From: a virus
Lineage: Duplodnaviria > Heunggongvirae > Uroviricota > Caudoviricetes
Virus record (IMG/VR): IMGVR_UViG_2917413769_000001
Coordinates: 1 to 42,056 of that record
Reading direction: 5' to 3' (one strand)
Length of the DNA: 42,056 nucleotides
A program made the position numbers and the translations under genes. Each line of letters begins with the position of its first letter. The stretch's first letter is position 1. The notes under the pieces are model-generated. The model saw nothing but the letters and a program-made list of their open reading frames with translations. It searched no databases and had not been told where the DNA came from. Below, piece by piece: positions 5,396 through 41,756 of this stretch.

Positions 5396-6064
5396 CTAAA
5401 ATTTTGGAAAAGCAGGAATCAGATCGCCATTACTCCACCAGGATCCTGTATCCGCTGAAAAAGTTGTCGGCATTCCCGATTCGAATTTACTCATCAGGCC
5501 GCCGAGTGCCGCCTCCACCTGTGATATTGCGAGAAGCGGCTGTTCAAACTCCATTTCCCAGGTGTGTTGAACCTGCTTATTCTGCTCAGAAAATCCCGAC
5601 ACATCGACAAACGAGCGCATCAGGCAGCCGGTGTAGATATACGAGGGCGTCATCACGACGTAATAGCCGCCGCTCTGATTGTGCTTATCCAGCGCCAGTT
5701 TCAGTGCGGCGAAGGTGATCCCCTTGGTTGCGTACCCTCCATCCTTCGTGGATGCAGGTCGTAGCATCTGCATTCGCACCTGGTTCGGACGGTTGATTAC
5801 CGAGTTAGCCGCCGTCGCCATGTTGTAAAAATTGAGAGTTCCGATTTCTTGCCTGATTAGTGAAGTTCCGGCCATTGGAGTGAAGTGGGCTGTTGGTCCG
5901 GAGAGTTCACCGTGAAGCAGACCATCAACAATACTCACACCTTCGGTCAGAACCGCGATCGGCATCATGCCCCCGGGTATTTCGGAGGCAATGCCCTCAA
6001 CTAGAATTATCGGCGAAACCTCGAAGGCCAGACGGAACGCCTGACCAAAGTAATTCAATGCCAT
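5396..6064 (-). CDS. Tail structural protein
   Basis: 222-aa ORF immediately downstream of the tape-measure-like gene. Confidence 0.3.
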   Translation of the reverse strand: MALNYFGQAFRLAFEVSPIILVEGIASEIPGGMMPIAVLTEGVSIVDGLLHGELSGPTAHFTPMAGTSLIRQEIGTLNFYNMATAANSVINRPNQVRMQMLRPASTKDGGYATKGITFAALKLALDKHNQSGGYYVVMTPSYIYTGCLMRSFVDVSGFSEQNKQVQHTWEMEFEQPLLAISQVEAALGGLMSKFESGMPTTFSADTGSWWSNGDLIPAFPKF

Positions 6065-6067
6065 GCG

Positions 6068-7927
6068 TTACCTCGGCGTTATGTAGATCCCCTGAACCTG
6101 AGCCTGAATATCGGAGCCTGGCTTTTCGTTTACCTGGAGGTTGATTGTGGCCCGATCGCTAACTCCACCTTTACCGAGAGTGCTACTTGCGTCACTCAAT
6201 TGCTGGAGAATGCCAGGATGCTGTTCAACTGCGCCCTGAACTTTAGGCAGAATATTCAGTAAATAATCGACAGTCTCTTTTTTGAGATTGAGATTGCCGT
6301 CCTTCGAAACAGCAATATTGCCGCCGTTGTACTGAGCCAACGCTTTTGCAACATCCCCACCATATCTGTTCAGATTGTCGCGGAAATATTTGCCAGCAGC
6401 ATCGACTGACTTCTCTGGATCAAAGCGTTCCATTGTCGACAGCCCATAACCAGATGCTGTCGGTGTGGTGAACTGGAAGAGTCCGGCTGCCCCTGACTTT
6501 TTGTTATAAGCCAATGGATTACCGCTGGACTCTTTCATTGCTACAGCGCCAAGCAGCCCGGCTGGTAGTTGGTTATCCTGAGCAACCTGATCAAATCTCG
6601 TTTTTAAAGAAGCCAGTTGGCTATCTGGCATGTGATAACCAAGGCCATTCTTATCAAAAATGTTTTTATCGGACCAAATTCCGGTGTACTTGCCCGTGGC
6701 TTGATTTGAGCCTGGCAGTTTCCCGTTCAGGTATTCATCCCCATACATTTTAAGGATTGGGTTTACCTGATCCGGCCCTTTCCCTGTCCCAGACAGATCC
6801 ACTCCAGGAACATTACCGGCTATCCACTTAATGGCCTGGCCCAGCGCTGTAACGATGGCCTTTACACAATCTGCGAAGGTTTTCAGATCGGTCTGGAAGC
6901 TATCTCCACCCAGCCAGTCGCCCAGTTTGTGCAGGCCGCTCGCCAGCGTGTCGAATACAGCTTTCCCGTTTTTACCGTTGAGGAATTTTTCGATGCTGGC
7001 GGTCAGGTTGTCGGAGATTTTACCGATGGGGGCGCTCAGCTTCGCCAGTGCTTTCAGAAAAGAGTTTCCGATCCGGTCGGCGTTGTATTCAAACTTTGCA
7101 GTTAAATCCTGGTATTTCTGCTGAGTGCCGCTACCCATATCCCGGTCAAGAACCTGTGACTGCTCAGTGAACTGCTTACTCAGCTGCGGCAGGCGGTCGC
7201 TGTTCGCAAGAATTTGGTTAGCGGTCGCCACATCGATCACACCATCGAGGCCATAGCCTTGTAGCACGGATTGCGAGACACCAGTACCTTTGTACTGCTG
7301 TAAGAGACGGGAAACGCCCTCCAGCAGTTTCGGCATATTTTCGGCGGCACCAGCCTGCGGATTGATGCCCAACGACATAATCCCGGCGTACTGCGGGTTA
7401 TTTGGAGCATTCTGTACCGCAGCCAGCGCCTGCATGATGTTCCCGGTATTACTGATTCGGGTGCCGTAGACGTTGTTAGCGGCCTGCATCTGCCCAGAAG
7501 TGACATTCAAACCCTGCGCGGTGCGGTACTGATCGGCAACGTGGCGTGCCATTAATCCATAGCCAAATGGACCGGCCACACTCAGCGCCGCAATTTTAGT
7601 CCCCCAACTGATGGTGGTGGCAAACAGCCCCTTCAGCGTACTGGTGGTGGCCCCGAGAGTTTTATTGATGAGCGTGAAGGTTTTCAGTGTGCCCTGGGCT
7701 TCCTTGTTCAGCCCCTTCATGAACTTGTCGAAACCGGACGCATCCGGCTTTTTCCCTGTCTGCTCTTCAGGTTTTTTGGCTGGTGGCCGAGCCGTGGGAG
7801 CCGGGACCGGAAAACCACCCGGCCCGACGGTGATGGCTGCCTTAAATTTGTCGGCGATCTCGTGGAGCGCCTTGATTTTTTCGTCGTCGAAATCCAGAGT
7901 CAAAACTGGAAGCTGATTCCCTGCCAT
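6068..7927 (-). CDS. Tail tape-measure-like protein with C-terminal lytic transglycosylase (SLT) domain
   Basis: 619 aa, at tape-measure position; motif AVAMKESSGNPLAYNKKSGAAGLFQF matches the SLT catalytic Glu-Ser and G-L-x-Q signature. Confidence 0.6.
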   Translation of the reverse strand: MAGNQLPVLTLDFDDEKIKALHEIADKFKAAITVGPGGFPVPAPTARPPAKKPEEQTGKKPDASGFDKFMKGLNKEAQGTLKTFTLINKTLGATTSTLKGLFATTISWGTKIAALSVAGPFGYGLMARHVADQYRTAQGLNVTSGQMQAANNVYGTRISNTGNIMQALAAVQNAPNNPQYAGIMSLGINPQAGAAENMPKLLEGVSRLLQQYKGTGVSQSVLQGYGLDGVIDVATANQILANSDRLPQLSKQFTEQSQVLDRDMGSGTQQKYQDLTAKFEYNADRIGNSFLKALAKLSAPIGKISDNLTASIEKFLNGKNGKAVFDTLASGLHKLGDWLGGDSFQTDLKTFADCVKAIVTALGQAIKWIAGNVPGVDLSGTGKGPDQVNPILKMYGDEYLNGKLPGSNQATGKYTGIWSDKNIFDKNGLGYHMPDSQLASLKTRFDQVAQDNQLPAGLLGAVAMKESSGNPLAYNKKSGAAGLFQFTTPTASGYGLSTMERFDPEKSVDAAGKYFRDNLNRYGGDVAKALAQYNGGNIAVSKDGNLNLKKETVDYLLNILPKVQGAVEQHPGILQQLSDASSTLGKGGVSDRATINLQVNEKPGSDIQAQVQGIYITPR

Positions 7928-15711: not shown

Positions 15712-16528
15712 GTTTTCCTTTCTCCGTTAAAAACTCGACAGGTAATTTCTGCGGGGCATAAATCGGAAACACCTGACAACTGCAAAATGGATCTTCGCCA
15801 GCAGCGGTAATTTCGTCGTAATAACCGTATTCGGGCTTAATCAATCCCTGCTGTACCGCCCAGGAGTCGCGGATCAGGTAAATTAGCGTGTCGCGGTGCT
15901 TGTGATCGACGCGATAGTCGTAGCCAGGCCGCCGCCAGTTTGAATGCCAGCGAAACGCGATAGCGCCACCCTGAACGGAAAGCAGGTATTTCACGTTGCT
16001 CGCAAGTTTATGCCCCTGGTCGATTGCTACCCGGCGACTGATGAAATCCAGGTCGGTGACTGATTTCCGAATAGCCGATTTCTGCGCGTTTTTATCAATC
16101 TCGCTCACACCGTCCGGAGGGATAGACGTCACCCACCCCTGAAAACGCTGCACAGTGCGTTCAATGGCCTGCTCACGGTTCAGTTTGATAAGGTTGGCGC
16201 TGGCAAAGATTCGCCGATCAAGCTCCTTACGGAGTTCTGGCTTAATCTTGTCGAGGGTGATTTGTTTGGGCCCGTCTGGAGGCTGGTCCCGTAAAGCGCC
16301 ACCGTGAACGACGAGGCGGCTGTAAATTGATGTGAGGTGCTTGCGCGTTACATCATCGCTGGGTGATTCCCGGCTGGCTGCCACCCGAAGTTTCTGACAC
16401 CAGGAAAGCAACGATTTCTGGCTATCCCACCCATTATCAACGTAATAATTAATCGCATCGGTCAGCACTTCGTAGAGGGTTTTAGGTTTCCTCTTCGGTT
16501 TCGTGCGGCTGGTTCGTTTGTCCGCCAT
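15692..16528 (-). CDS. Head morphogenesis protein (Mu F / SPP1 gp7-like position)
   Basis: 278-aa ORF immediately downstream of portal gene. Confidence 0.4.
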   Translation of the reverse strand: MADKRTSRTKPKRKPKTLYEVLTDAINYYVDNGWDSQKSLLSWCQKLRVAASRESPSDDVTRKHLTSIYSRLVVHGGALRDQPPDGPKQITLDKIKPELRKELDRRIFASANLIKLNREQAIERTVQRFQGWVTSIPPDGVSEIDKNAQKSAIRKSVTDLDFISRRVAIDQGHKLASNVKYLLSVQGGAIAFRWHSNWRRPGYDYRVDHKHRDTLIYLIRDSWAVQQGLIKPEYGYYDEITAAGEDPFCSCQVFPIYAPQKLPVEFLTEKGKREFNRA

Positions 16529-17912
16529 TATTCGGATCCTGCGGTGGTGGTGGCTGGTATTTCGAAAGGGCTTCTTTGTCGATGATCATCGGTGAGTCGC
16601 CGTAGGTTTCGGTGGCGTTGGTCACGCTGGCCAACCACTCTGCCGCCATCGCCCTGTTTTCGGGATCAAGCTGTTGCGCCATGATTGAGAACAATGCACC
16701 AGCTTGCTGCACAACCTTGCTGTCGCTCTCACGGCGCTTATCAGGCGACTCTTCCACCAGCTCCTGCCAGCCCGCATCAAACTCACGCTCCCACATCCTG
16801 AAAGTGGTCTGATAATCCTCGGTGATAATGTCCGGATAATCGTTCTTCAGAGAGGTGTAAAAATCCTCATTCCAGGCGATGTAACGCACCAGGCGTTCGA
16901 AGTAATCCATCACCGGCTCGATAAGTTGACGCACCCCATCGACATACTGGCTGATGGCTTTGGAATCCTCTTTCCCTTCCCCAAATCCATTAGAAAATGC
17001 CTCCTCTTTGATAAGGATGGCGGGAACATCGCTACCTGCCGCAATGTCGCTGATAATGTTGTCACGGGCTGTAGAGAGCGCTTTATCGATATTCTGAAGG
17101 TTCAACGACTCGATATCGTCTTTCGTGCCAATACTGAGCACCCCTTCATTTTCCGAGATTTTGACGTTTTCCCTTTTCTTACCTGTGGCCGCCGCCATGA
17201 TGCCGCTGGCTACCGAGCCGTTCTGTTCGGTTTTGGCGACAAGCACGCCTGCCTTTTTAGCCACGAGATTGTTTGCCACCATCGTCCCGATATACGACTT
17301 CATCGGGTACAGAACACGCTGAAACACGCTGCGGCCAGTAAAGCCGAACGTTGAGTTCTGGTATTCGAGGTAAATCGGTGTGCCGTTGAATATTTTCAGC
17401 GTGCGCGATGGATGCCAGCTTTTTGAGGCTATTTTCAGCGTTGCATTCGCCTGCTGAAAGAACCGGCTATTCGGGTTCTGGTCAGTGACCATACTGCCGG
17501 CAGCATTAAGCGGATCCCAAACGTTGATATAAACGTCCTCTTCCCGCAGTCCAAATGTCGGTAGCGGGTCTTTGCACGTTGCGCCATCCGTCCCAACGCC
17601 GATAGCGGCAGCGCCATAGCAACGGGATACGTAAAAGAGATTTTTTATCTTCTCATTGAGGCCCATACGCTCCCACACTTCGCGAAACTGGCGAACAACA
17701 CGTTCATCCGGGTCAGTCTCGACGTTATAGGTGCGCGGTTTGCACATCGCCATGTTGATTGGCTTTTCCACCAGCTTGCCGCCCAGCGGGTGATACTGCC
17801 AAAGCAGCTTACACAGCTCATAGCCGACGTCGGTCCCCGGTTGAATTCCTTCATGGTCGAGAATTTTTGTCAGCTCGGAACTGATGTTGTTATTGAACTG
17901 AATTTCAGCCAT
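16482..17912 (-). CDS. Portal protein
   Basis: 476-aa ORF immediately downstream of terminase large subunit. Confidence 0.5.
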   Translation of the reverse strand: MAEIQFNNNISSELTKILDHEGIQPGTDVGYELCKLLWQYHPLGGKLVEKPINMAMCKPRTYNVETDPDERVVRQFREVWERMGLNEKIKNLFYVSRCYGAAAIGVGTDGATCKDPLPTFGLREEDVYINVWDPLNAAGSMVTDQNPNSRFFQQANATLKIASKSWHPSRTLKIFNGTPIYLEYQNSTFGFTGRSVFQRVLYPMKSYIGTMVANNLVAKKAGVLVAKTEQNGSVASGIMAAATGKKRENVKISENEGVLSIGTKDDIESLNLQNIDKALSTARDNIISDIAAGSDVPAILIKEEAFSNGFGEGKEDSKAISQYVDGVRQLIEPVMDYFERLVRYIAWNEDFYTSLKNDYPDIITEDYQTTFRMWEREFDAGWQELVEESPDKRRESDSKVVQQAGALFSIMAQQLDPENRAMAAEWLASVTNATETYGDSPMIIDKEALSKYQPPPPQDPNNGGQTNQPHETEEET

Positions 17913-19255: not shown

Positions 19256-19909
19256 TTATACCTGTAATCTCTCTCCGTCAGGAGTATCAAGTGCCCCGTG
19301 AACAACGATGGTGTCATTCGAATCACCATTACGGAGGTTTTCGATTTCGGCTTTGATTTTTTCATTGCTCAGGCGGACACGTTCGATTTCAAGTAACCGA
19401 AGTTCTCTATCCTGTTCGCTGGAGGACAGATTGTGGAAAGCTGCGAGGTTTTTCAATGCAGCGTCCTGGTCACGAGTCATGACCTCGATACCGAATTTAG
19501 TTTTCTTCACCCCGGCCATAAGACGACGAGCAGGTCCAACTAAATCACGCGTATCCGCAAGGAAAACATCCTCGATGCCCTCACCTGCACATTTAGGGCA
19601 ATCAGGGTTGGGGTCGTCGTTAGCAACGAAACCAAATCCACCAGACTGATCCGGAGGCGGTTTGCTGTCATTCGCTGCTTTAGCGGCTGCCTTGTCGTAC
19701 TCGCTTTCATCAATCCACTGATAGTGGTTATCGAATCCCCAGCAGTAACGGCAGCAAACACGGCGCATCTGAGAAATCTCACCGGGATCCGCAATCGCTA
19801 TTTCATGCCAGTGCCTGAGAATGTCCTGAGCGTTTAATATTGCCTGCTCGGTTAACTGTTCGATGCCCTGGTTAATGGCTCTCGCTACCGTTGGCTTGCG
19901 ATACAGCAT
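19256..19909 (-). CDS. Terminase small subunit-like protein (core; N-terminal HTH continues upstream in this frame without a start codon)
   Basis: 217 aa with CCRYCWG...CPKCAG Cys motifs; in-frame upstream extension to 20062 encodes LSDKEKLFVSYYLECRNKYEAYRKAGY, a TerS-type HTH, but is closed by a stop at 20063-20065. Confidence 0.5.
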   Translation of the reverse strand: MLYRKPTVARAINQGIEQLTEQAILNAQDILRHWHEIAIADPGEISQMRRVCCRYCWGFDNHYQWIDESEYDKAAAKAANDSKPPPDQSGGFGFVANDDPNPDCPKCAGEGIEDVFLADTRDLVGPARRLMAGVKKTKFGIEVMTRDQDAALKNLAAFHNLSSSEQDRELRLLEIERVRLSNEKIKAEIENLRNGDSNDTIVVHGALDTPDGERLQV

Positions 19910-20003
19910 CCGGGCGTTTCTGTCTCCCCCGGTATAACCTGCCTTCCGATATGCCTCATACTTGTTGCGGCACTCCAGATAGTAGGAAACGAAAAGTTTT
20001 TCT

Positions 20004-20294
20004 TTATCGGAGAGATCTGCGCAAAAAGGGGATCTTTCGGGATTCTGTTTTTGCGCAGTTTTTTAATGCCCTTCTCTTACCCTTCCCTTGTTCTGGCGCG
20101 GCCTTATCAGGATTCTGCGCGATAACCTGCGCAGTTTTTTTTTGCGCATTATTCTGCGCAGACTTTTTTATGTAGCGGCGGGCTGTGTCGTAAACCAATC
20201 CCTGCTGTTCACACCAGTCTTTCATCTTTATTCCCGTACTGGCGTGAGCGGCAGCAAACTGAGATTGCAGCTCCTTCCAGTCGGGTTTGCTCAT
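20004..20294 (-). CDS. HTH DNA-binding protein with AQ-repeat tail; possibly the start of a frameshifted small terminase
   Basis: ATG at 20294 overlaps upstream stop (ATGA); N-terminal HTH-like segment KDWCEQQGLVYDTARRYI; C-terminus low complexity encoded by CTGCGCA repeats. Confidence 0.4.
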   Translation of the reverse strand: MSKPDWKELQSQFAAAHASTGIKMKDWCEQQGLVYDTARRYIKKSAQNNAQKKTAQVIAQNPDKAAPEQGKGKRRALKNCAKTESRKIPFLRRSLR

Positions 20295-20557
20295 CAATCA
20301 CTGTCCTTACTGCGCGAAAGCCTCATCAGCTCGTTATAAACGTAGACGTACACGTCACCGTTACGGGCACGTTTGTATAACGCCCCTCGCAATTTGGCCT
20401 CGCCTTTTGCCGTCCCGATACGGATGGCCTCACGAAATAGCGCTAGCCTCTCCCTGTCCTGCCTCAGTTCGTCCATATCAATATCGAGCACGTCTGCAAT
20501 CTGCTGTTCCGTCAAACGACGGGCGGCCAACGCCTCTATTTTTTCACGAACGAACAT
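20294..20557 (-). CDS. Small HTH DNA-binding protein (possible packaging-specificity protein)
   Basis: Internal ATG at 20557 (MFVREK...) avoids overlap with upstream gene; sigma-r4-like HTH LTEQQIADVLDID. Confidence 0.4.
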   Translation of the reverse strand: MFVREKIEALAARRLTEQQIADVLDIDMDELRQDRERLALFREAIRIGTAKGEAKLRGALYKRARNGDVYVYVYNELMRLSRSKDSD

Positions 20558-20618
20558 AAGCACCTCTACGATTTGATATGCAATACCATCGTAATGACGC
20601 CCTGTAGTGGCTGCTGTT

Positions 20619-21236
20619 TTAAATCCGGCAAAAGGTATAGCTACCAATACCATCTCGACCAAGCTCGCTTTCGCGGGTGTTGTGTTCCACCAGCTTAAAC
20701 CCGTTAGCTGCAAACCATTTTAAGAGCCCATCATGAGTCCAGTACCAGATATGCTCATCACGGCGGAAATGACGGGACCGCAGTACATGCTCTGCGCACT
20801 CAAAGATGGGTACTGAAACGAATACCCATTTTTCCGCCCGCGCGATGGCAACCTCTGGCCGATCGATATGTTCCAGGGAATCCCAGAACGTCAGCGCCGG
20901 ATATCGGTCATGGTATAAATGCGCCCACTGTCCTCGCGCTTTCAGCCACTCAACGCCCGCAGGATTTACATCAAATCCCTTGGTATCCGGACGTGCTTCA
21001 ACAAATTGCCCGGCACCGATGCCAACATCCAGAACAACACCGCTGTAATGTCGCGAAACTAACTGGACCCGTGCCGCAGTCAACTCTCTACCTAGTTCGG
21101 TATCAGCCAGTTGCTGGTATCGTGAAAAATAATCTTCATCGTACGGTCGATGGGCCTTCGGCACCGGGTAACGACCAATACCCAATTCAGGCAGCCACGC
21201 CAGCCCATGTTTGATTTGCTCAGAGAAATACTTCAT
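20619..21236 (-). CDS. Class I SAM-dependent methyltransferase
   Basis: 205 aa; motif I VLDVGIGAGQF and downstream FWDSLEHI. Confidence 0.6.
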   Translation of the reverse strand: MKYFSEQIKHGLAWLPELGIGRYPVPKAHRPYDEDYFSRYQQLADTELGRELTAARVQLVSRHYSGVVLDVGIGAGQFVEARPDTKGFDVNPAGVEWLKARGQWAHLYHDRYPALTFWDSLEHIDRPEVAIARAEKWVFVSVPIFECAEHVLRSRHFRRDEHIWYWTHDGLLKWFAANGFKLVEHNTRESELGRDGIGSYTFCRI

Positions 21237-22140
21237 GCGCCCACTCGCTTACGTGATGCCTGATATACGTTATCGATAAAGGGCTGCACCCGTGAAGAAA
21301 GCCCACTGATTGTTTTGTCGCAAGCGTGTTTCATCTCCTGGCACCGGCAATAGTTATCCGGGTATACAAACAACGCGCGGGATAAATCCATACAACGGGG
21401 ATCGGTAACTTTAGAGTGGTGGTTATTGCCGCCATTGCCGCCCTGCAAGCAGATCATCGGTTTACCGTAAGCAAGCGCAGCGTGCATGACGACACATGCA
21501 CCCGTAAGCACTATGTCGGCCCTTTCCACCAGCGCCAGCATCTGCGTGATAGAAAGCTGGCCATCATGCAGCTTCCGGTGCGCGAAAGGTTCCAGATCCG
21601 GTATCCACTCCAGACCAGGCTCGTTATCTGCAATGCTGATAACATGAAAACCGCGTATTGCCAGTAACCGGGAAACTTCATCCACATATTTGTTCAGCGG
21701 CCCGCGGCTGGCATTGTGCCACTCGGTACGTTCTGTGGTGGGACGTATAACGGCTATTGGCTTACCATCGGTACCGGAATATCCGGCGGAGGGTAATGCG
21801 GTAAATCCATCGCTGCCGGCAGCGTACCAAATTGCTGCTGCATCGCGTCGAATATGCTCCCGGCCTGAAGATGGCCATTGCCGTAAAAAATGCGCTGACG
21901 GGGAATGCCTGGCGGTTCAGATTCAAATCTCACCGATGTGCTTTGCTCGTTCTTACGCTGCGTCCGCAATGGCGTATTGGCCTTCACGAAATGCAGGTTC
22001 GGGATCCCGGCGTAAATTTCCGGAAGTGGCGTTCTCAGCCATACCTCTTTTCCCTGTTTGACCAGCGCCTTAATGAAGCAGCGCTGGTTGATATTGTCAC
22101 CGATGCCGTGCATCCCGTCTAAGTACAGTTTTCCAGGCAT
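21233..22140 (-). pseudogene. GT9-family (heptosyltransferase-like) glycosyltransferase, interrupted by a frameshift
   Basis: N-terminal ORF (to 21754) has GIGDNINQRCFIKAL and AMQQQFGTLPAAMDLPHY; C-terminal frame, open from 21916, has PIAVIRPTTERTEWH and DIVLTGACVVMHAALAYGKPMICLQGG, both resembling WaaC-type motifs; the two frames overlap 21757-21916. Confidence 0.5.
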
Positions 22141-22678
22141 AAAGTGCCGCCTCAAGTGGTAAACGTTTAAAGCAAGTCAGCGCGGTCTCGCGTGACGCGT
22201 TGATAATCTCCACGCCCGGCAGAGCGCCAGCGAGAGAAGCAAAGTCGGTATGCCAGCGCCCTACTTCGCGCGGTACCGGATTATGCATCGTTGCCGGGTG
22301 GCGCCCATGCCAGTGTGCGCCGTTCACCAGGGTGCAGTCGTATCCGAGAAGAATCACCCTCTCTGCGCCGAGGTGGGCGGCGAGTTGAATGGCACGCTTC
22401 CCGGAGTTGAACGGCCCATTTTCTGATGGGGTGAAAAGCTTCACGCCGAACCGGGAATGAGCCCGTTTGCTCTGAGTCCATAGTTCGGCGCTGGTTTCCA
22501 GCGAATCGTAGTAATGGTCCCACCAGGTGAAATCGGCGGCGAAGATGTGCTGACAGTCTGGTACGGCCCTCCAGCTCGAATTAACTGCAATGACCGGGTA
22601 ACCGGAGCCGGAGGCCTGTGCGCAGTCGTTCGCCGTCAGCGACGGGCCGCTGGCGATGCAGATAAAGGTTTGGGTCAT
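22097..22678 (-). CDS. GT42/DUF115-like Rossmann-fold protein (sialyltransferase-like motifs)
   Basis: 193 aa; N-terminal ICIASGPSL and later SGKRAIQLAAHLGAERVILLGYDC resemble GT42 (Cst-II-type) IIAGNGPSL and SG...A..LG...I.L.G.D motifs, recalled from memory. Confidence 0.35.
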   Translation of the reverse strand: MTQTFICIASGPSLTANDCAQASGSGYPVIAVNSSWRAVPDCQHIFAADFTWWDHYYDSLETSAELWTQSKRAHSRFGVKLFTPSENGPFNSGKRAIQLAAHLGAERVILLGYDCTLVNGAHWHGRHPATMHNPVPREVGRWHTDFASLAGALPGVEIINASRETALTCFKRLPLEAALYAWKTVLRRDARHR

Positions 22679-22736
22679 AGGGATAGTTGGTCAGGTTGGC
22701 ATTATCACAGGCACTTAGGGAATGCCTGCTGTAATG

Positions 22737-23138
22737 TCAGTCTTTAAGATATTTATCGGTGTTATGTACCCGCTCGCTCATAAGCAGCTCTGCACCTGTA
22801 CTGGTTACGATGGCGCTGTGGTGAGGGTGAACATTTTCAGCCATCCACTTAATCAGTGGCTCTGCTGCTTCTGCAAAAGAGTCAGCGTCCTGTTCGTAAA
22901 CCGGACTGCATTTGATTTCATCAACCCGATAAAGCCGAATGGCTTGAAGTTCTAAGGAATCAGGGGTCGGGGCAAGAGAAATAAATTCGCTACCGTGAAG
23001 TTTTTGCGGGTTGACCTGATCCTTTGAATAGCCGGTGAAGAATGGTTGTCTTTTTTCCGCCAACATTTGCGTTATCACAGATTTAGGCTGCTGCTCGAAT
23101 AGCTCTACTTTCCAGTATTTGACCAACTTAATTTCCAT
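22737..23138 (-). CDS. Hypothetical protein
   Basis: 133-aa ORF between HNH endonuclease and the glycosyltransferase/MTase cassette. Confidence 0.3.
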   Translation of the reverse strand: MEIKLVKYWKVELFEQQPKSVITQMLAEKRQPFFTGYSKDQVNPQKLHGSEFISLAPTPDSLELQAIRLYRVDEIKCSPVYEQDADSFAEAAEPLIKWMAENVHPHHSAIVTSTGAELLMSERVHNTDKYLKD

Positions 23139-23200: not shown

Positions 23201-23716
23201 TCAGCCTCTTTTGCGAATTTTCCCGCCATTATTTGCAAATTCACCGTGAGCGGCTTCTCGGAATTCACGCACAGCCTTCTCAGCATCACCTATATCAGTG
23301 AAGCAACCAAGGTGACGAGCATTCCCCTTTATTTTGCATTTCGCGTGCCATTTCTTGTCCCCTTTATGCCAGCAAACACCTTTTATTCCTGAGGTATTAT
23401 TGCGCGACAGCCTTGTGTTTCGCATATTTTCCACTGGAGAGGCGTTACGAAGATTACAAATCCGATTATCATTCTTCACGCCATTGATATGGTCGACCTG
23501 CTCAGACGGCCATATTCCGTTGGTGTAAAACAAAGCCAACCGATGCGCTAAATAAGCCAAGGAATTAATCCTGATCTGGACATATCCATTAGTATCTGGC
23601 GAGCCCGCAATACAACCCGCATGAACACCACCGCGAGATTCAAGCCAATAAAAAACCCCGGTATCGGAGTTATATTTCAACAAGCGTTTAAGCTGTTGTT
23701 GATCAATTACGGCCAT
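23201..23716 (-). CDS. HNH endonuclease with AP2 DNA-binding domain
   Basis: HNH_3-type motif VDHINGVKNDNRICNLRNA; AP2-like GVCWHKGDKKWHAKCKIKGNARHLGCF. Confidence 0.8.
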   Translation of the reverse strand: MAVIDQQQLKRLLKYNSDTGVFYWLESRGGVHAGCIAGSPDTNGYVQIRINSLAYLAHRLALFYTNGIWPSEQVDHINGVKNDNRICNLRNASPVENMRNTRLSRNNTSGIKGVCWHKGDKKWHAKCKIKGNARHLGCFTDIGDAEKAVREFREAAHGEFANNGGKIRKRG

Positions 23717-25868: not shown

Positions 25869-25945
25869 TGGTCCGCCACCGGGGGCTCGAACCCCGTACA
25901 ATCAAATTAAAAGGCTGATGCTCTGTCCTGGTGAGCTAGTGGCGG
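25869..25945 (-). tRNA. tRNA-like element (possible phage tRNA or pseudo-tRNA; anticodon UUU if functional)
   Basis: Reverse complement folds as a cloverleaf: 7-bp acceptor CCGCCAC/GTGGCGG, D-stem GCTC/GAGC with GG loop, T-arm CGGGG-TTCGAGC-CCCCG, encoded CCA; anticodon stem weak (3 WC + 1 GU + 1 mismatch). Confidence 0.35.
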
Positions 25946-26598
25946 CTGACAGGTTTCACTAAATCGGTATGTAAAAAATTGCCAACTAATGAATAGCTGG
26001 CAATATGAACAAACAAACCGTGAAATTATCATAATAAGGAATAAGTATTGTCCCAAAATTACCTCCAGCGTTAATTAGCGTATGCCTATACTGCTCTTTC
26101 CGCAATGGAACACCCTTCACTTTCAGATTTAGTTATTGCCACTGGATGGTTTAGCGAAAATCGCTCTAAATCCTCGCCCAGTCCATGGCCGGCGGAGATA
26201 TAATACAGGTTTAACTAAGATGGCCTGCAGGATTATACAACTCAACTTTTTCCAGGCGGCCAAAAGTGCTACACACCCAGATATTTCATGGGCTTTATAA
26301 GGTAGTTACCTCTGGGTTTCATAGTTTACTCACGAATGATTTGCATGGGCAAAATTTACCCCAAATGAAAAACCACACCATATCAGGAGGTTTAATTTTC
26401 TGATCAAGTGTACGCATTCTTAATTAGAAAGCAGAAACCATCATAAAACACAAAATCCCCACGGAGTTAACCGCAGGGCTTGAATGAATTCTCTAACGAA
26501 TGAGCACAATACCCCATCATTGGAATCAGATTAGGCAATTTTATTCAAACATGCAATACTTCGTTGCCATCATGTTGTCAAAATTTACTAACAGGCAT

Positions 26599-27411
26599 CT
26601 ATCGTGTGACAGACTTCAATGCAGCATCAGCATGAGACTCTTCTACATGGCACTGGCTTACCAGAAGCTCAAACAGCGGCTTAAAGTTGCGTGACCATGT
26701 CGGTTGGCTTATTGTCATCACGCCTTCACACAACGCCTTGCGCACGCTCTCTGCCGGAAGCCTGGCATAACCACGGCCTGAGCATTTCCCGCATTCCTTC
26801 ATCACCGGCACGCCCTGAAGTTCCGTCGCCTTCTTATCCAGCACCTTCCCCTTACCATGACAACGACACGCATTGCTGATAACACCTTTGCCGTTACAGG
26901 TATTGCACATAACCCGCGCGGTTTCCCGTACCGACTTCCATTCTTCCCAGTAAGATGGATAAACCCCATTCGTGATTGCGGCCCATTTTGGTGGCTTACC
27001 GTCTGGATATTGAACCTTGTTTGTGAAGACATCAGCTTCGGTGAAGCCGCTACCAGCGCAGCAATCGCACTGCCTGACACTTGCCGCACTGCGCGTATAA
27101 TCCTGATACGCAAAAGCGCACATAATTTCGAGAACGCGTCGGCGAATTGTTTCATCGAGTTCAGTAACTGATTTACAACGTCGTGACAACTCAACTGCTG
27201 ACACATACAGTTCCTCCAATGCCCTGTCAGGGCTGCTGATTCCAATTTTTGCAAGGTACAGATCAAAGCCAAATCCACACCTGGCATTTACCAGCCCCAG
27301 CGCTGCCATTACATCTGTACCGGTCAGGTTATCGGTGGCCGTCGCCCGCGAAGAATCACTGAACATCGGGGACTTTGGAGCAAAATATTTTGCGATTGAT
27401 TCAAGGTTCAT
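26599..27411 (-). CDS. Late-gene antiterminator Q (Cys-rich lambdoid Q family)
   Basis: 270 aa with multiple CxxC motifs (CDCC, CNTCNGKG, CRCHGKG, CGKCSGRG); between nin genes and lysis cassette. Confidence 0.65.
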   Translation of the reverse strand: MNLESIAKYFAPKSPMFSDSSRATATDNLTGTDVMAALGLVNARCGFGFDLYLAKIGISSPDRALEELYVSAVELSRRCKSVTELDETIRRRVLEIMCAFAYQDYTRSAASVRQCDCCAGSGFTEADVFTNKVQYPDGKPPKWAAITNGVYPSYWEEWKSVRETARVMCNTCNGKGVISNACRCHGKGKVLDKKATELQGVPVMKECGKCSGRGYARLPAESVRKALCEGVMTISQPTWSRNFKPLFELLVSQCHVEESHADAALKSVTR

Positions 27412-34899: not shown

Positions 34900-35036
34900 C
34901 GTAAAAACCCGCCGAAGCGGGCCTGTACGTCCGGTGCCACCAACCAAAGTACACCGGAAATTACACAAAACCAATGAACACCCAATGGGCGCTACCAATG
35001 GCCCGGGGATTATACATCCAAAATTGAGGATCTCAT

Positions 35037-40299: not shown

Positions 40300-40624
40300 A
40301 ATGGCAATTCCAGCGAAAAAGGCGGCTGAAATTCTGGATGTTTCAACCAGGACTATTTACCAGTTGATTAACTCAGGGCAGTTGGCCGGTAAGAAGATAG
40401 GCAATAAGTATCGAACAACCGCATCAGCATGCCTTGCATATTTGTATTCCCCGCAAGAAACTAAACAGGCGAACGCGGGTGATCATAAAGGAGATAATTT
40501 ATGTCAATCACCCTCAGAGGCGGTGTGTGGCACTGTCATTTCTTTACGCCGTCAGGAAAAAGAGTTAGACGCTCTCTTGGTACGGGGGACAAAAAGCAAG
40601 CGCAGGAACTGCACGACAAACTGA
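40286..40624 (+). CDS. xis: Excisionase (Xis/AlpA-type HTH)
   Basis: [31 protein letters not shown]; directly upstream of and overlapping integrase. Confidence 0.55.
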
Positions 40625-41664
40625 AGGCAGAGGCGTGGCGGGTAGATAAGATAGGGGATCTTCCGTCCAGATCTTTTGAAGAATGTTGCATCCGCTGGAT
40701 ACGGGAAAAAGAGCACAAGCGTGCTCTTGATGATGACAAAACCAAGATAGAGTTTTTTCTGCAACATTTTTCGGGCAGGGACATTTCGTCTATTACGGCG
40801 AATGATGTATACGGCGTCGTCGAAGGGATGACCAACAGAAAACATTATCAGAACTGGGTTAGCAGCAGGGACGCTGCAATCAGGAAAGGAAAGGAACCAC
40901 CGGAATACAAGCCAAAGCTGGTTAGCCAGGAGACAAGGGCACAGCATCTGTCATTTATGCGGGGTCTTTTCCGTATAGCTGAGAAGGACTGGCTCTGGAT
41001 AAAGGATGCACCTGTTATCAAGGTGAGAAAGCCAGGGAGCAAGCGTATCCGCTGGCTCACTAAAGATGAGGCCTCACGGCTAATCGAATGCGTTTCTGAT
41101 GATTTAAAGCCGGTCGTTACTTTTGCGCTGGCGACAGGACTTCGGCGCTCTAACATTATCAACCTGGAATGGCAGCAGGTCGATATGCAAAGGAAAATTG
41201 CCTGGGTAAATCCAGAGGACGCTAAAGCGGGAAAGGCTATCGGCGTAGCCCTGAATGATACCGCATGCAAAGTGCTTCGCGATCAGATTGGAAAACATTC
41301 CAGGTGGGTTTTTGTCTACACGAAAGCAAAACATCGACCTGATGGAACAATCACCCCCGCAGTCAGGAAAATGAGTCTCGGTAACCATAAAGGATGGGAT
41401 GCGGGTCTGAAGCGAGCCGGAATCGAAAATTTTCGCTTCCACGACCTGCGCCATACCTGGGCAAGCTGGCTGGTTCAGTCCGGTGTCCCGTTATCCATTT
41501 TACAGGAAATGGGTGGATGGGAATCGATTGAAATGGTCCAGAGATATGCGCACCTGGCCCCTAATCATTTAACGGAGCACGCACGGAAAATTGATCTGAT
41601 TTTTGGAAGCAGCGACACAAATACGACACAGGAAATAAGTCAGGCAGGATTGAGGATAGCGTAA
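40501..41664 (+). CDS. int: Tyrosine integrase, P22-like family
   Basis: 387 aa; catalytic-region motifs [14 protein letters not shown] and VQRYAHL; close resemblance to P22 Int as recalled; ends 16 nt from a tRNA gene. Confidence 0.9.
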
Positions 41665-41679
41665 TTCATTGATTTATAA

Positions 41680-41756
41680 TGGCGCGCCCTGCAGGATTCG
41701 AACCTGCGGCCCACGACTTAGAAGGTCGTTGCTCTATCCAACTGAGCTAAGGGCGC
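41680..41756 (-). tRNA. argU: tRNA-Arg (anticodon UCU), argU-type
   Basis: Reverse complement GCGCCCTTAGCTCAGTTGGATAGAGCAACGACCTTCTAAGTCGTGGGCCGCAGGTTCGAATCCTGCAGGGCGCGCCA: 7-bp acceptor, D-loop GG, anticodon loop CUUCUAA, T-loop TTCGAAT, encoded CCA. Confidence 0.9.

Follow-up and report, generated by a model that had tools for sequence, protein, structure and literature searches.

The virus record IMGVR_UViG_2917413769_000001 (Caudoviricetes) was analysed over its whole length of 42,056 nucleotides (nt), hereafter called the window, which represents a prophage with its late genes on the minus strand. Exact matches of its proteins assign the prophage to Escherichia sp. E1130. At positions 20619-22678 it carries a cassette of three co-oriented minus-strand genes, which encode a PmgO-like protein, a GT9-like glycosyltransferase and an S-adenosylmethionine (SAM)-dependent methyltransferase. 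The trio is an accessory module of phages, conserved and mobile, which lies in late-transcribed regions and encodes three cytoplasmic enzymes. We propose, with a probability of roughly 0.45, that it builds a glycan during the lytic phase on a cytoplasmic acceptor, most likely the virion proteins. A preliminary description, made from the window's letters, had read the genes as an acquired glycan-modification module. That reading is supported here and is refined to a widespread conserved late PmgO-family module, for which virion-protein glycosylation is the leading hypothesis over lysogenic conversion of lipopolysaccharide (LPS). No functional study of the cassette was found in the literature searched.

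The first gene of the cassette encodes a protein of 193 amino acids (aa) that matched phrog_4603 with an E-value of 3e-55. PmgO of phage P1 belongs to the same family, and the two proteins are 38% identical over 97% of the protein. The PmgO-like protein has the central GT-A-variant catalytic fold common to GT42 sialyltransferases (the Maf/GT42 fold). Its GPSL, NSG and LLGYD motifs are invariant in 40 homologues and belong to a longer invariant pattern, GPSL ... N ... NSG ... LLGYD ... HWHG.HP, whose elements (GPSL, N, SG, GxD and H..HP) we take to be the cytidine monophosphate (CMP)-sugar site of the GT42 family, by comparison with Cst-II. The protein is thus predicted to be a minimal catalytic core of the Maf/GT42 fold and a CMP-ulosonic-acid-dependent transferase. 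The Pfam family PF01973 (MptE-like, formerly DUF115) scored 23.3 bits, less than its cut-off of 34.6, and covered residues 86-117 only; many homologues have a precomputed PF01973 match. A sequence search of the PDB returned nothing informative, and BFVD yielded many phage DUF115-like proteins, unnamed, from which no function could be read. A minority reading of the fold data would make the short protein a pyrophosphokinase of the MptE or thiamine-pyrophosphokinase type, and the trio a set of enzymes that makes or modifies a small metabolite, which we consider quite improbable.

The second gene is interrupted in the window, and both of its halves matched phrog_6804, at profile positions 2-107 and 107-271 of 275. 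The product of the frame-repaired gene has 302 aa and is 96% identical to an intact 302-aa protein of Pantoea sp. JZ2. Among the listed homologues with at least 67% identity and the whole query covered, the length is 301-306 aa, and a few others are truncated or extended. Against the Pfam family Glyco_transf_9 (PF01075, gathering cut-off 22 bits), the C-terminal fragment of the window scored 17.3 bits and the intact homologue P0001 scored 21.7 bits, while 20 of 39 members of the GT9-like family matched at E<0.01 (best 1.4e-7). The heptosyltransferase equivalogs of NCBIfam gave weak heptosyltransferase II matches far under their own cut-offs, and no usable name for any of the cassette proteins was obtained from NCBIfam. 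When the PDB sequences were searched with the GT9-like profile, WaaF alone appeared, weakly. The structural model shows a two-lobe GT-B fold to which GT9 structures are closest. The pair G14-D15, conserved without exception in 39 homologues, comes after strand E4-8 in the model. It coincides in position with the catalytic aspartate of WaaC and TibC, an equivalence drawn from location and not from residue-level superposition. The catalytic residue of WaaC, in the loop after strand 1, is Asp13. That of TibC is Asp-110 (PMC4358343). The chain begins straight at the catalytic N-lobe, which is modelled with four strands in about 110 residues, and an invariant knuckle, C265-x-C267-x4-H272-x-C274, precedes the last helix. 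Since the Pfam scores were under the gathering cut-offs, both transferases are termed here GT9-fold and Maf/GT42-fold proteins and not curated family members.

The third gene product is, from its sequence, a clear class I SAM methyltransferase. It matched Methyltransf_23 with 42.1 bits (cut-off 27) over residues 60-184 and phrog_6564 with an E-value of 4e-81, and its SAM-binding glycine-rich motif I (VLDVGIGxGxF), located after strand 1, is invariant in 15 homologues. Its PDB sequence search found generic relatives only, such as UbiG-type enzymes. The family calls of the preliminary description (SAM methyltransferase, GT9-like and GT42/DUF115-like) were therefore borne out by profile and fold searches for the three proteins.

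The distribution of the cassette was studied by scanning IMG/VR with the GT9-like profile, which gave 447 relatives, and by examining a sample of 80 loci. The order PmgO-like, GT9-like, methyltransferase on one strand was found in 75 of these 80 loci, and three of the five exceptions end at a contig end. One 505-aa protein (P0039), which covers 97% of the GT9-like query and carries a Methyltransf_23 domain too, looks like a fusion of the second and third enzymes. A contiguous trio is present in Pseudomonas phage PAJU2 (ORF010-012), Klebsiella jumbo phage Eowyn (gp005-003) and Enterobacter phage Mulvp2. Phage D3 has it in two separate parts (orf7 and orf12-13), and P1 and Citrobacter phage phiNP carry a variant set, pmgO-pmgP-pmgQ. 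Pairwise ratios of nonsynonymous to synonymous substitution rates (dN/dS) against four relatives ranged from 0.05 to 0.19 for all three genes, including the repaired GT9-like gene; by this measure of coding sequence the trio is under purifying selection.

Some of these PmgO-like genes are unannotated in GenBank, namely those of phiNP (OR565852.1, 23701-24273; positions 7001-7573 of locus L005) and Mulvp2 (OR508996.1; positions 5514-6017 of locus L167). The PmgO-like ORF010 of PAJU2 (locus L003, 5974-6543) is named a 'structural protein' in the original GenBank record. If this annotation rests on virion protein sequencing, the PAJU2 enzyme may be packaged.

The cassette was seen only in phages of Gram-negative hosts, including E. 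coli, Pseudomonas, Klebsiella, Serratia and Caulobacter. Its position varies, but in every case the cassette is part of the block of late or structural genes or adjoins it, and is encoded on the strand of that block. In the window lineage, in phiNP (as the variant) and in Erwinia it lies between Rz and the terminase genes. It was also seen upstream of a D3-type terminase and, in D3, PAJU2 and Mulvp2, inside the head-tail gene clusters. A Rahnella prophage apparently has it inside a head-tail cluster too, as judged by gene layout among unannotated neighbours. In locus L069 it stands between Q and the holin gene, which is the position of the stx genes in Shiga-toxin phages. Among the relatives of the large terminase, 11 of the 14 closest (at least 75% identity) have the cassette. 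L094 and L095, with 9 kb of upstream sequence, lack it, as do all 43 more distant terminase relatives with at least 5 kb upstream. The cassette is accessory, because it is patchy among these terminase relatives, and the acquired nature proposed earlier is confirmed. The synteny of the terminase relatives also led us to reject a role as a conserved core feature of packaging, since L094, L095 and the 43 other relatives do without it.

Two of these positions, the lysis-terminase junction and the site after Q that stx occupies, are accessory hot spots, in which an effector of host takeover or anti-defence could be housed. Such an effector would glycosylate and methylate a host protein or small molecule, for instance a defence factor or a signal, and not the virion. 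In P1, a Ser/Thr phosphatase belongs to the same C1-controlled operon as the variant set, and locus L049 has a ppp homologue some 1.3 kb upstream of the cassette. The broad range of phages is also in keeping with an acceptor in the host, since it would not have to vary together with the virion type. However, PADLOC defence models did not match the cassette and none of the known anti-defence families was recognised, the late timing of the cassette is poorly suited to early-acting defences, and its position within the head-tail modules of several phages would be left unexplained. We regard this explanation as unlikely.

Close relatives of the window provide the evidence for another function, the modification of DNA, in which phage bases would be glycosylated and methylated to evade restriction. 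Besides the SAM methyltransferase of the trio itself, a ParB-like gene and a TET-associated glycosyltransferase gene (TAGT, E 1.8e-47) are found immediately downstream of the methyltransferase gene, between it and a small helix-turn-helix (HTH) open reading frame (ORF), in L006 (9610-11134) and L172 (10530-12078). They are likely a DNA-modification pair in temperate enterobacterial phages. This pair is nevertheless separable from the trio: the 1.55-kb segment is missing in the window (site 20558-20618) and the pair is absent from many other loci. Neither transferase fold matched a DNA glycosyltransferase, the methyltransferase had no DNA-methyltransferase match but the generic, small-molecule-type Methyltransf_23 match only, and no enzyme that would hydroxylate or hydroxymethylate bases was seen among the neighbours of the cassette. 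We know of no report of glycosylated DNA for D3 or P1. DNA modification appears very improbable.

The expression context of the cassette is that of the late operon. The promoter and terminator scan found no promoter-like site at the cassette or shortly before it. The sole sigma-70-like promoter matches upstream on the coding strand are those downstream of the Q gene (Table 1), which probably represent the late promoter region. No strong hairpin was found in the cassette by the terminator scan, and two weak matches with 3 G-C pairs occur inside the methyltransferase gene. The genes are tightly packed. The PmgO-like and GT9-like genes overlap by 44 nt, and the GT9-like and methyltransferase genes overlap by 4 nt (ATGA), so that the start codon of the latter lies on the stop codon of the former. 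No transmembrane-grade hydrophobic segment was detected in the three proteins, with a maximum 19-residue hydropathy of 0.97-1.67.

From these features a pathway can be proposed. A CMP-activated donor would supply the ulosonic acid that the PmgO-family enzyme transfers, and an adenosine diphosphate (ADP)-activated donor the heptose-type sugar that the GT9-fold enzyme attaches. The glycan would be capped by the SAM methyltransferase. The donors are inferred by analogy, CMP-ulosonic acid for the PmgO-like protein from Maf and GT42 enzymes and ADP-heptose for the GT9-like protein from GT9 enzymes; the order of the reactions and the acceptor are proposed as well. The donors would likely be CMP-3-deoxy-D-manno-oct-2-ulosonic acid (CMP-Kdo) and ADP-heptose, because every Gram-negative host makes both for the LPS core. 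To our knowledge these LPS-core precursors are the only such donors common to all the hosts listed above. CMP-Kdo is the likelier donor for the PmgO-like protein because hosts such as E. coli K-12 make, as far as we know, no nonulosonic acids. The module would act during lytic growth on a cytoplasmic acceptor present late in infection, most likely the phage's own virion proteins. These are the best-fitting acceptor because the genes are embedded in the head-tail modules of several unrelated phages. A precedent is offered by mycobacteriophages, in which the Che8 capsid is glycosylated and the structural operon of Corndog carries comparable genes.

Two further observations bear on a protein acceptor. 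The N-lobe of the GT9-like protein is four-stranded, as in the protein heptosyltransferase TibC. On a Lonsdalea quercina chromosome (L168, 5423-13691), GT9-like and PmgO-like genes with a degraded methyltransferase gene between them lie outside any recognisable prophage. There, the GT9-like homologue is located 168 nt downstream of a gene for a 1136-aa inverse-autotransporter adhesin of the invasin/intimin type, and two S/T/D-rich beta-type proteins without family matches follow the GT9-like and PmgO-like genes. This linkage to an adhesin is a lead that points to a protein acceptor and would echo the TibC/TibA pair.

A bolder version of the virion hypothesis can be formulated. In Gram-negative hosts, tailed phages would furnish the proteins of their own virions with an O-linked glycan, short, methylated and composed of Kdo and heptose, in effect a coat resembling the LPS inner core, which would be made from host CMP-Kdo and ADP-heptose by a portable three-gene module. 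In this detail the idea is speculative and, at present, rather unlikely. The same holds for its corollary that such a module would have gone unrecognised so far in D3, PAJU2 and the jumbo Klebsiella phages, with a variant in P1.

The biochemistry of the folds is also natural for a different acceptor. The trio could remodel the LPS inner core: while lipid A-core is being made on the cytoplasmic side of the inner membrane, it would receive Kdo, heptose-type sugars and a methyl group. The effect would be lysogenic conversion, or else superinfection exclusion and the masking of receptors on cell debris late in infection. Kdo2-lipid A is the substrate of WaaC and WaaF, the closest GT9 enzymes to have been characterised, and the weak NCBIfam matches were to heptosyltransferase II. 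The presumed donors are LPS-core precursors, the hosts are Gram-negative only, and D3 is a seroconverting phage. On the other hand, the cassette belongs to late operons without a promoter-like site of its own and its three proteins have no membrane segment, whereas classic conversion modules lie near int/att, are expressed in the lysogen and include membrane proteins. The acceptor-binding N-lobe of the GT9-like protein, with about 110 aa and four strands, is presumably smaller than that of the LPS enzymes. LPS modified late in infection would have little time to reach the surface, and the genes of D3, PAJU2 and Mulvp2 are interleaved with head and tail genes. LPS remodelling as a whole is somewhat unlikely in our view, and lysogenic conversion in particular is disfavoured as a poor fit to a late, promoterless and membrane-free context. 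Of the targets considered in the preliminary description, virion modification thus fits best, given the head-tail position in D3, PAJU2 and Mulvp2, and LPS lysogenic conversion fits worst.

Several points weigh against virion-protein glycosylation as the function of the trio. The window Pfam scores of both transferases are under the gathering cut-offs, and the link from genes to glycan is drawn from sequence. The acceptor is deduced from gene position alone, and morons too insert into structural operons. The phages that carry the cassette have virion modules unrelated to one another (those of myo-, sipho- and jumbo phages), and there is no one acceptor family whose occurrence follows that of the cassette. 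A search of this phage's structural proteins for Ig-like domains and other candidate acceptors found none. The Lonsdalea locus, with its degraded methyltransferase gene, could be a phage remnant. In P1, pmgO, pmgP and pmgQ are dispensable for plaque formation (PMC10695390), and the P1 pmg genes follow a C1-controlled promoter and not a late promoter.

The features of the locus are collected in Table 1. On the minus strand the late genes run from Q through the promoter-like sites, the tRNA-Lys gene, the holin, endolysin and Rz genes, the HNH_3 gene and the 133-aa ORF to the cassette, and then through the 87-aa HTH ORF to the small terminase, large terminase and portal genes. The three adjacent minus-strand genes reported in the preliminary description between the HNH gene and the terminase genes are hence real, although they are not alone in separating the two: the 133-aa and 87-aa ORFs lie there as well. 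The cassette had also been called unexpected at a lysis-to-terminase junction, and this view was not upheld, as many relatives and phiNP have it at the same site and the HNH gene is itself an insertion.

Table 1. Features of the cassette region and of other parts of the 42,056-nt window.
Feature	Position	Strand	Match or remark
PmgO-family protein, 193 aa	22097..22678	-	phrog_4603; Maf/GT42 sialyltransferase-like fold
GT9-fold glycosyltransferase gene, heptosyltransferase-like, intact form 302 aa	21233..22140	-	split: ORFs 22140-21754 and 21790-21233
Class I SAM-dependent methyltransferase, 205 aa	20619..21236	-	Methyltransf_23; phrog_6564
HTH ORF, 87 aa, between cassette and terminase	20294-20557	-	precedes small terminase gene
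Small terminase gene, split by a 1-nt insertion at ~20043	19256..20297	-	phrog_51: N part 1-73, C part 128-243
38-bp conserved intergenic element	22699..22736		just upstream of cassette; short hairpin-forming repeats
133-aa ORF, between HNH gene and cassette	22737..23138	-	phrog_16206, E 1.9e-44
HNH_3/AP2-type homing-endonuclease-like gene, free-standing	23201..23716	-	HNH_3, 42.3 bits; phrog_99, E 1.6e-65
tRNA-Lys(TTT)	25869-25945		late leader, between promoter-like sites and holin gene
Sigma-70-like promoter matches	26025..26056	-	downstream of Q gene; promoter/terminator scan
Q antiterminator	26599-27411	-	phrog_127, E 1.9e-98
tRNA-Arg(TCT)	41680-41756		far window end, adjoining 387-aa ORF (40501-41664)

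The GT9-like gene of the window has a 1-nt deletion (a missing G) at about 21769, where it reads GGTACC-GATGG and the relatives L006, L007 and L032 read GGTACCGGATGG; the frameshift noticed in the preliminary description is explained by this deletion. A second indel affects the small terminase gene, in which the window reads CAGAATCCC where relatives read CAGA-TCCC, and the intact small terminase of L006 has 342 aa. A programmed frameshift in the GT9-like gene was considered and is unlikely, since the listed close homologues and the aligned L006, L007 and L032 have one 302-aa frame and the small terminase gene has a separate indel. The frameshift is recent or an assembly error, because the repaired gene shows a purifying dN/dS. 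As read from the window, the GT9-like gene is a pseudogene or an assembly error, and the two indels together suggest a decaying prophage or indel errors of assembly. Because of these indels the cassette copy of this prophage is probably inactive and the prophage defective, unless both are assembly errors.

The base composition of the cassette had been described as visibly richer in G and C than the rest of the phage. The cassette is indeed richer, with 54.5% GC against 50.7% for the whole window, but the difference is modest, about 1.6 standard deviations over the mean of equal-length windows. Its GC content is reached by 5.6% of such windows, and the region at 36.3-40.4 kb is richer, with up to 56.7%. 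The contrast looks strong mainly because the flanking genes for the 133-aa ORF and the HNH protein have 45% GC.

The HNH_3 gene is missing between Rz and the 133-aa ORF or cassette in the close relatives L006 and L007, and from this comparison of sequences it looks like a free-standing homing endonuclease insertion. Its identification as a terminase-associated HNH gene displaced by the cassette was rejected, as it is of the HNH_3/AP2 homing type and missing in relatives. The 133-aa ORF is present in L007 and absent in L006. Intergenic DNA with 93-95% identity to the 38-bp element occurs in phi80 and several Klebsiella phages, within their lysis-to-terminase or cos accessory regions, and has the same orientation there with respect to the late genes. 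The element may have a regulatory role, or it may mark a junction at which modules recombine. Searches for DNA near-identity against GenBank phages and complete E. coli genomes gave no match, and a distant DNA search found just one weak jumbo-phage match and the 38-bp element. The end of the window with the tRNA-Arg gene may be the integration site. An Rfam match to the Hfq-binding small RNA isrB (34902-34996, minus strand, 41.7 bits against a gathering score of 35) lies in the prophage early region. The portal protein (16482-17912) is named 'anti-CBASS protein Acb1 family' by some sources (UniRef, NCBI), which looks like annotation carry-over rather than demonstrated activity.

As far as we found, virion glycosylation has been demonstrated to date only in mycobacteriophages, where it shields the capsid from antibodies. 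If the function proposed for the trio is true, it would extend to Gram-negative systems and to hundreds of Enterobacterales and Pseudomonas phages, both temperate and lytic, among them D3 and P1 as model phages and also relatives of phages used in therapy. It would bear on phage immunogenicity, stability and adsorption, on the tapping of LPS precursor pools and on the long-unexplained 'pmg' genes. For the present window the significance is smaller because its copy is probably dead. D3, PAJU2 and P1 are culturable, and the question is directly testable in them.

Among known systems, the Maf flagellin glycosyltransferases and the Campylobacter GT42 sialyltransferases Cst-I and Cst-II share the core fold of the PmgO-like protein. 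The Maf chain has 632 residues and the phage proteins have 181-193 aa, corresponding to the core only. The flanking N- and C-terminal domains of Maf, which presumably bind flagellin, are absent, and the neighbours are phage genes and not flagellar or nonulosonic-acid genes.

The GT9-like protein, with 302 aa, is shorter than the heptosyltransferases WaaF (331 residues) and WaaC (320 residues) in their solved chains, and than TibC (406 residues). TibC and AAH, which are bacterial autotransporter heptosyltransferases (BAHT), possess an N-terminal beta-barrel, a thumb in the form of a beta-hairpin and a four-Cys iron finger. In TibC this finger is inserted in the C-lobe and the N-lobe is reduced to four strands (PMC4358343). 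The GT9-like protein lacks the barrel and the thumb, and has a compact CxCx4HxC motif in place of the four widely spaced cysteines of TibC. Unlike WaaC, WaaF, TibC and AAH, it is phage-borne and always paired with a methyltransferase. The BAHT genes adjoin the gene of their autotransporter substrate, whereas no adhesin gene is near the cassette in the window or the phage loci, Lonsdalea being the sole exception.

The seroconversion modules of temperate phages (gtrABC, oac and the iap/wzy-beta genes of D3) resemble the cassette in being prophage-borne glycan-modifying genes with a patchy accessory distribution. They encode membrane proteins, lie near int/att and are expressed in the lysogen. 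The cassette, in contrast, encodes soluble proteins, is part of a late operon between Rz and the terminase genes, and has no promoter-like site of its own.

The cassettes of the mycobacteriophages Che8 and Corndog are alike in that phage-encoded glycosyltransferases and a methyltransferase are found in or beside a structural or late operon. Corndog gp35-38 comprise an O-methyltransferase and glycosyltransferases, are encoded in the structural operon between the genes for portal and protease and are expressed in infected cells (PMC4351075). Their hosts are Actinobacteria with other sugar donors, and the enzyme families are apparently others, judged by the product names in that article. Glycosylation of the Che8 capsid is cited as demonstrated in PMC11256854.

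A further parallel is the pmgO-pmgP-pmgQ set of P1, a three-gene set with a glycosyltransferase and a true PmgO homologue, whose phiNP counterpart occupies the same Rz-to-terminase junction. It differs from the cassette in that a second DUF115-like protein, PmgP (phrog_2111), and the phrog_1962 glycosyltransferase PmgQ replace the GT9-like protein and the methyltransferase. The P1 pmg genes are described as having a 'putative morphogenetic function'.

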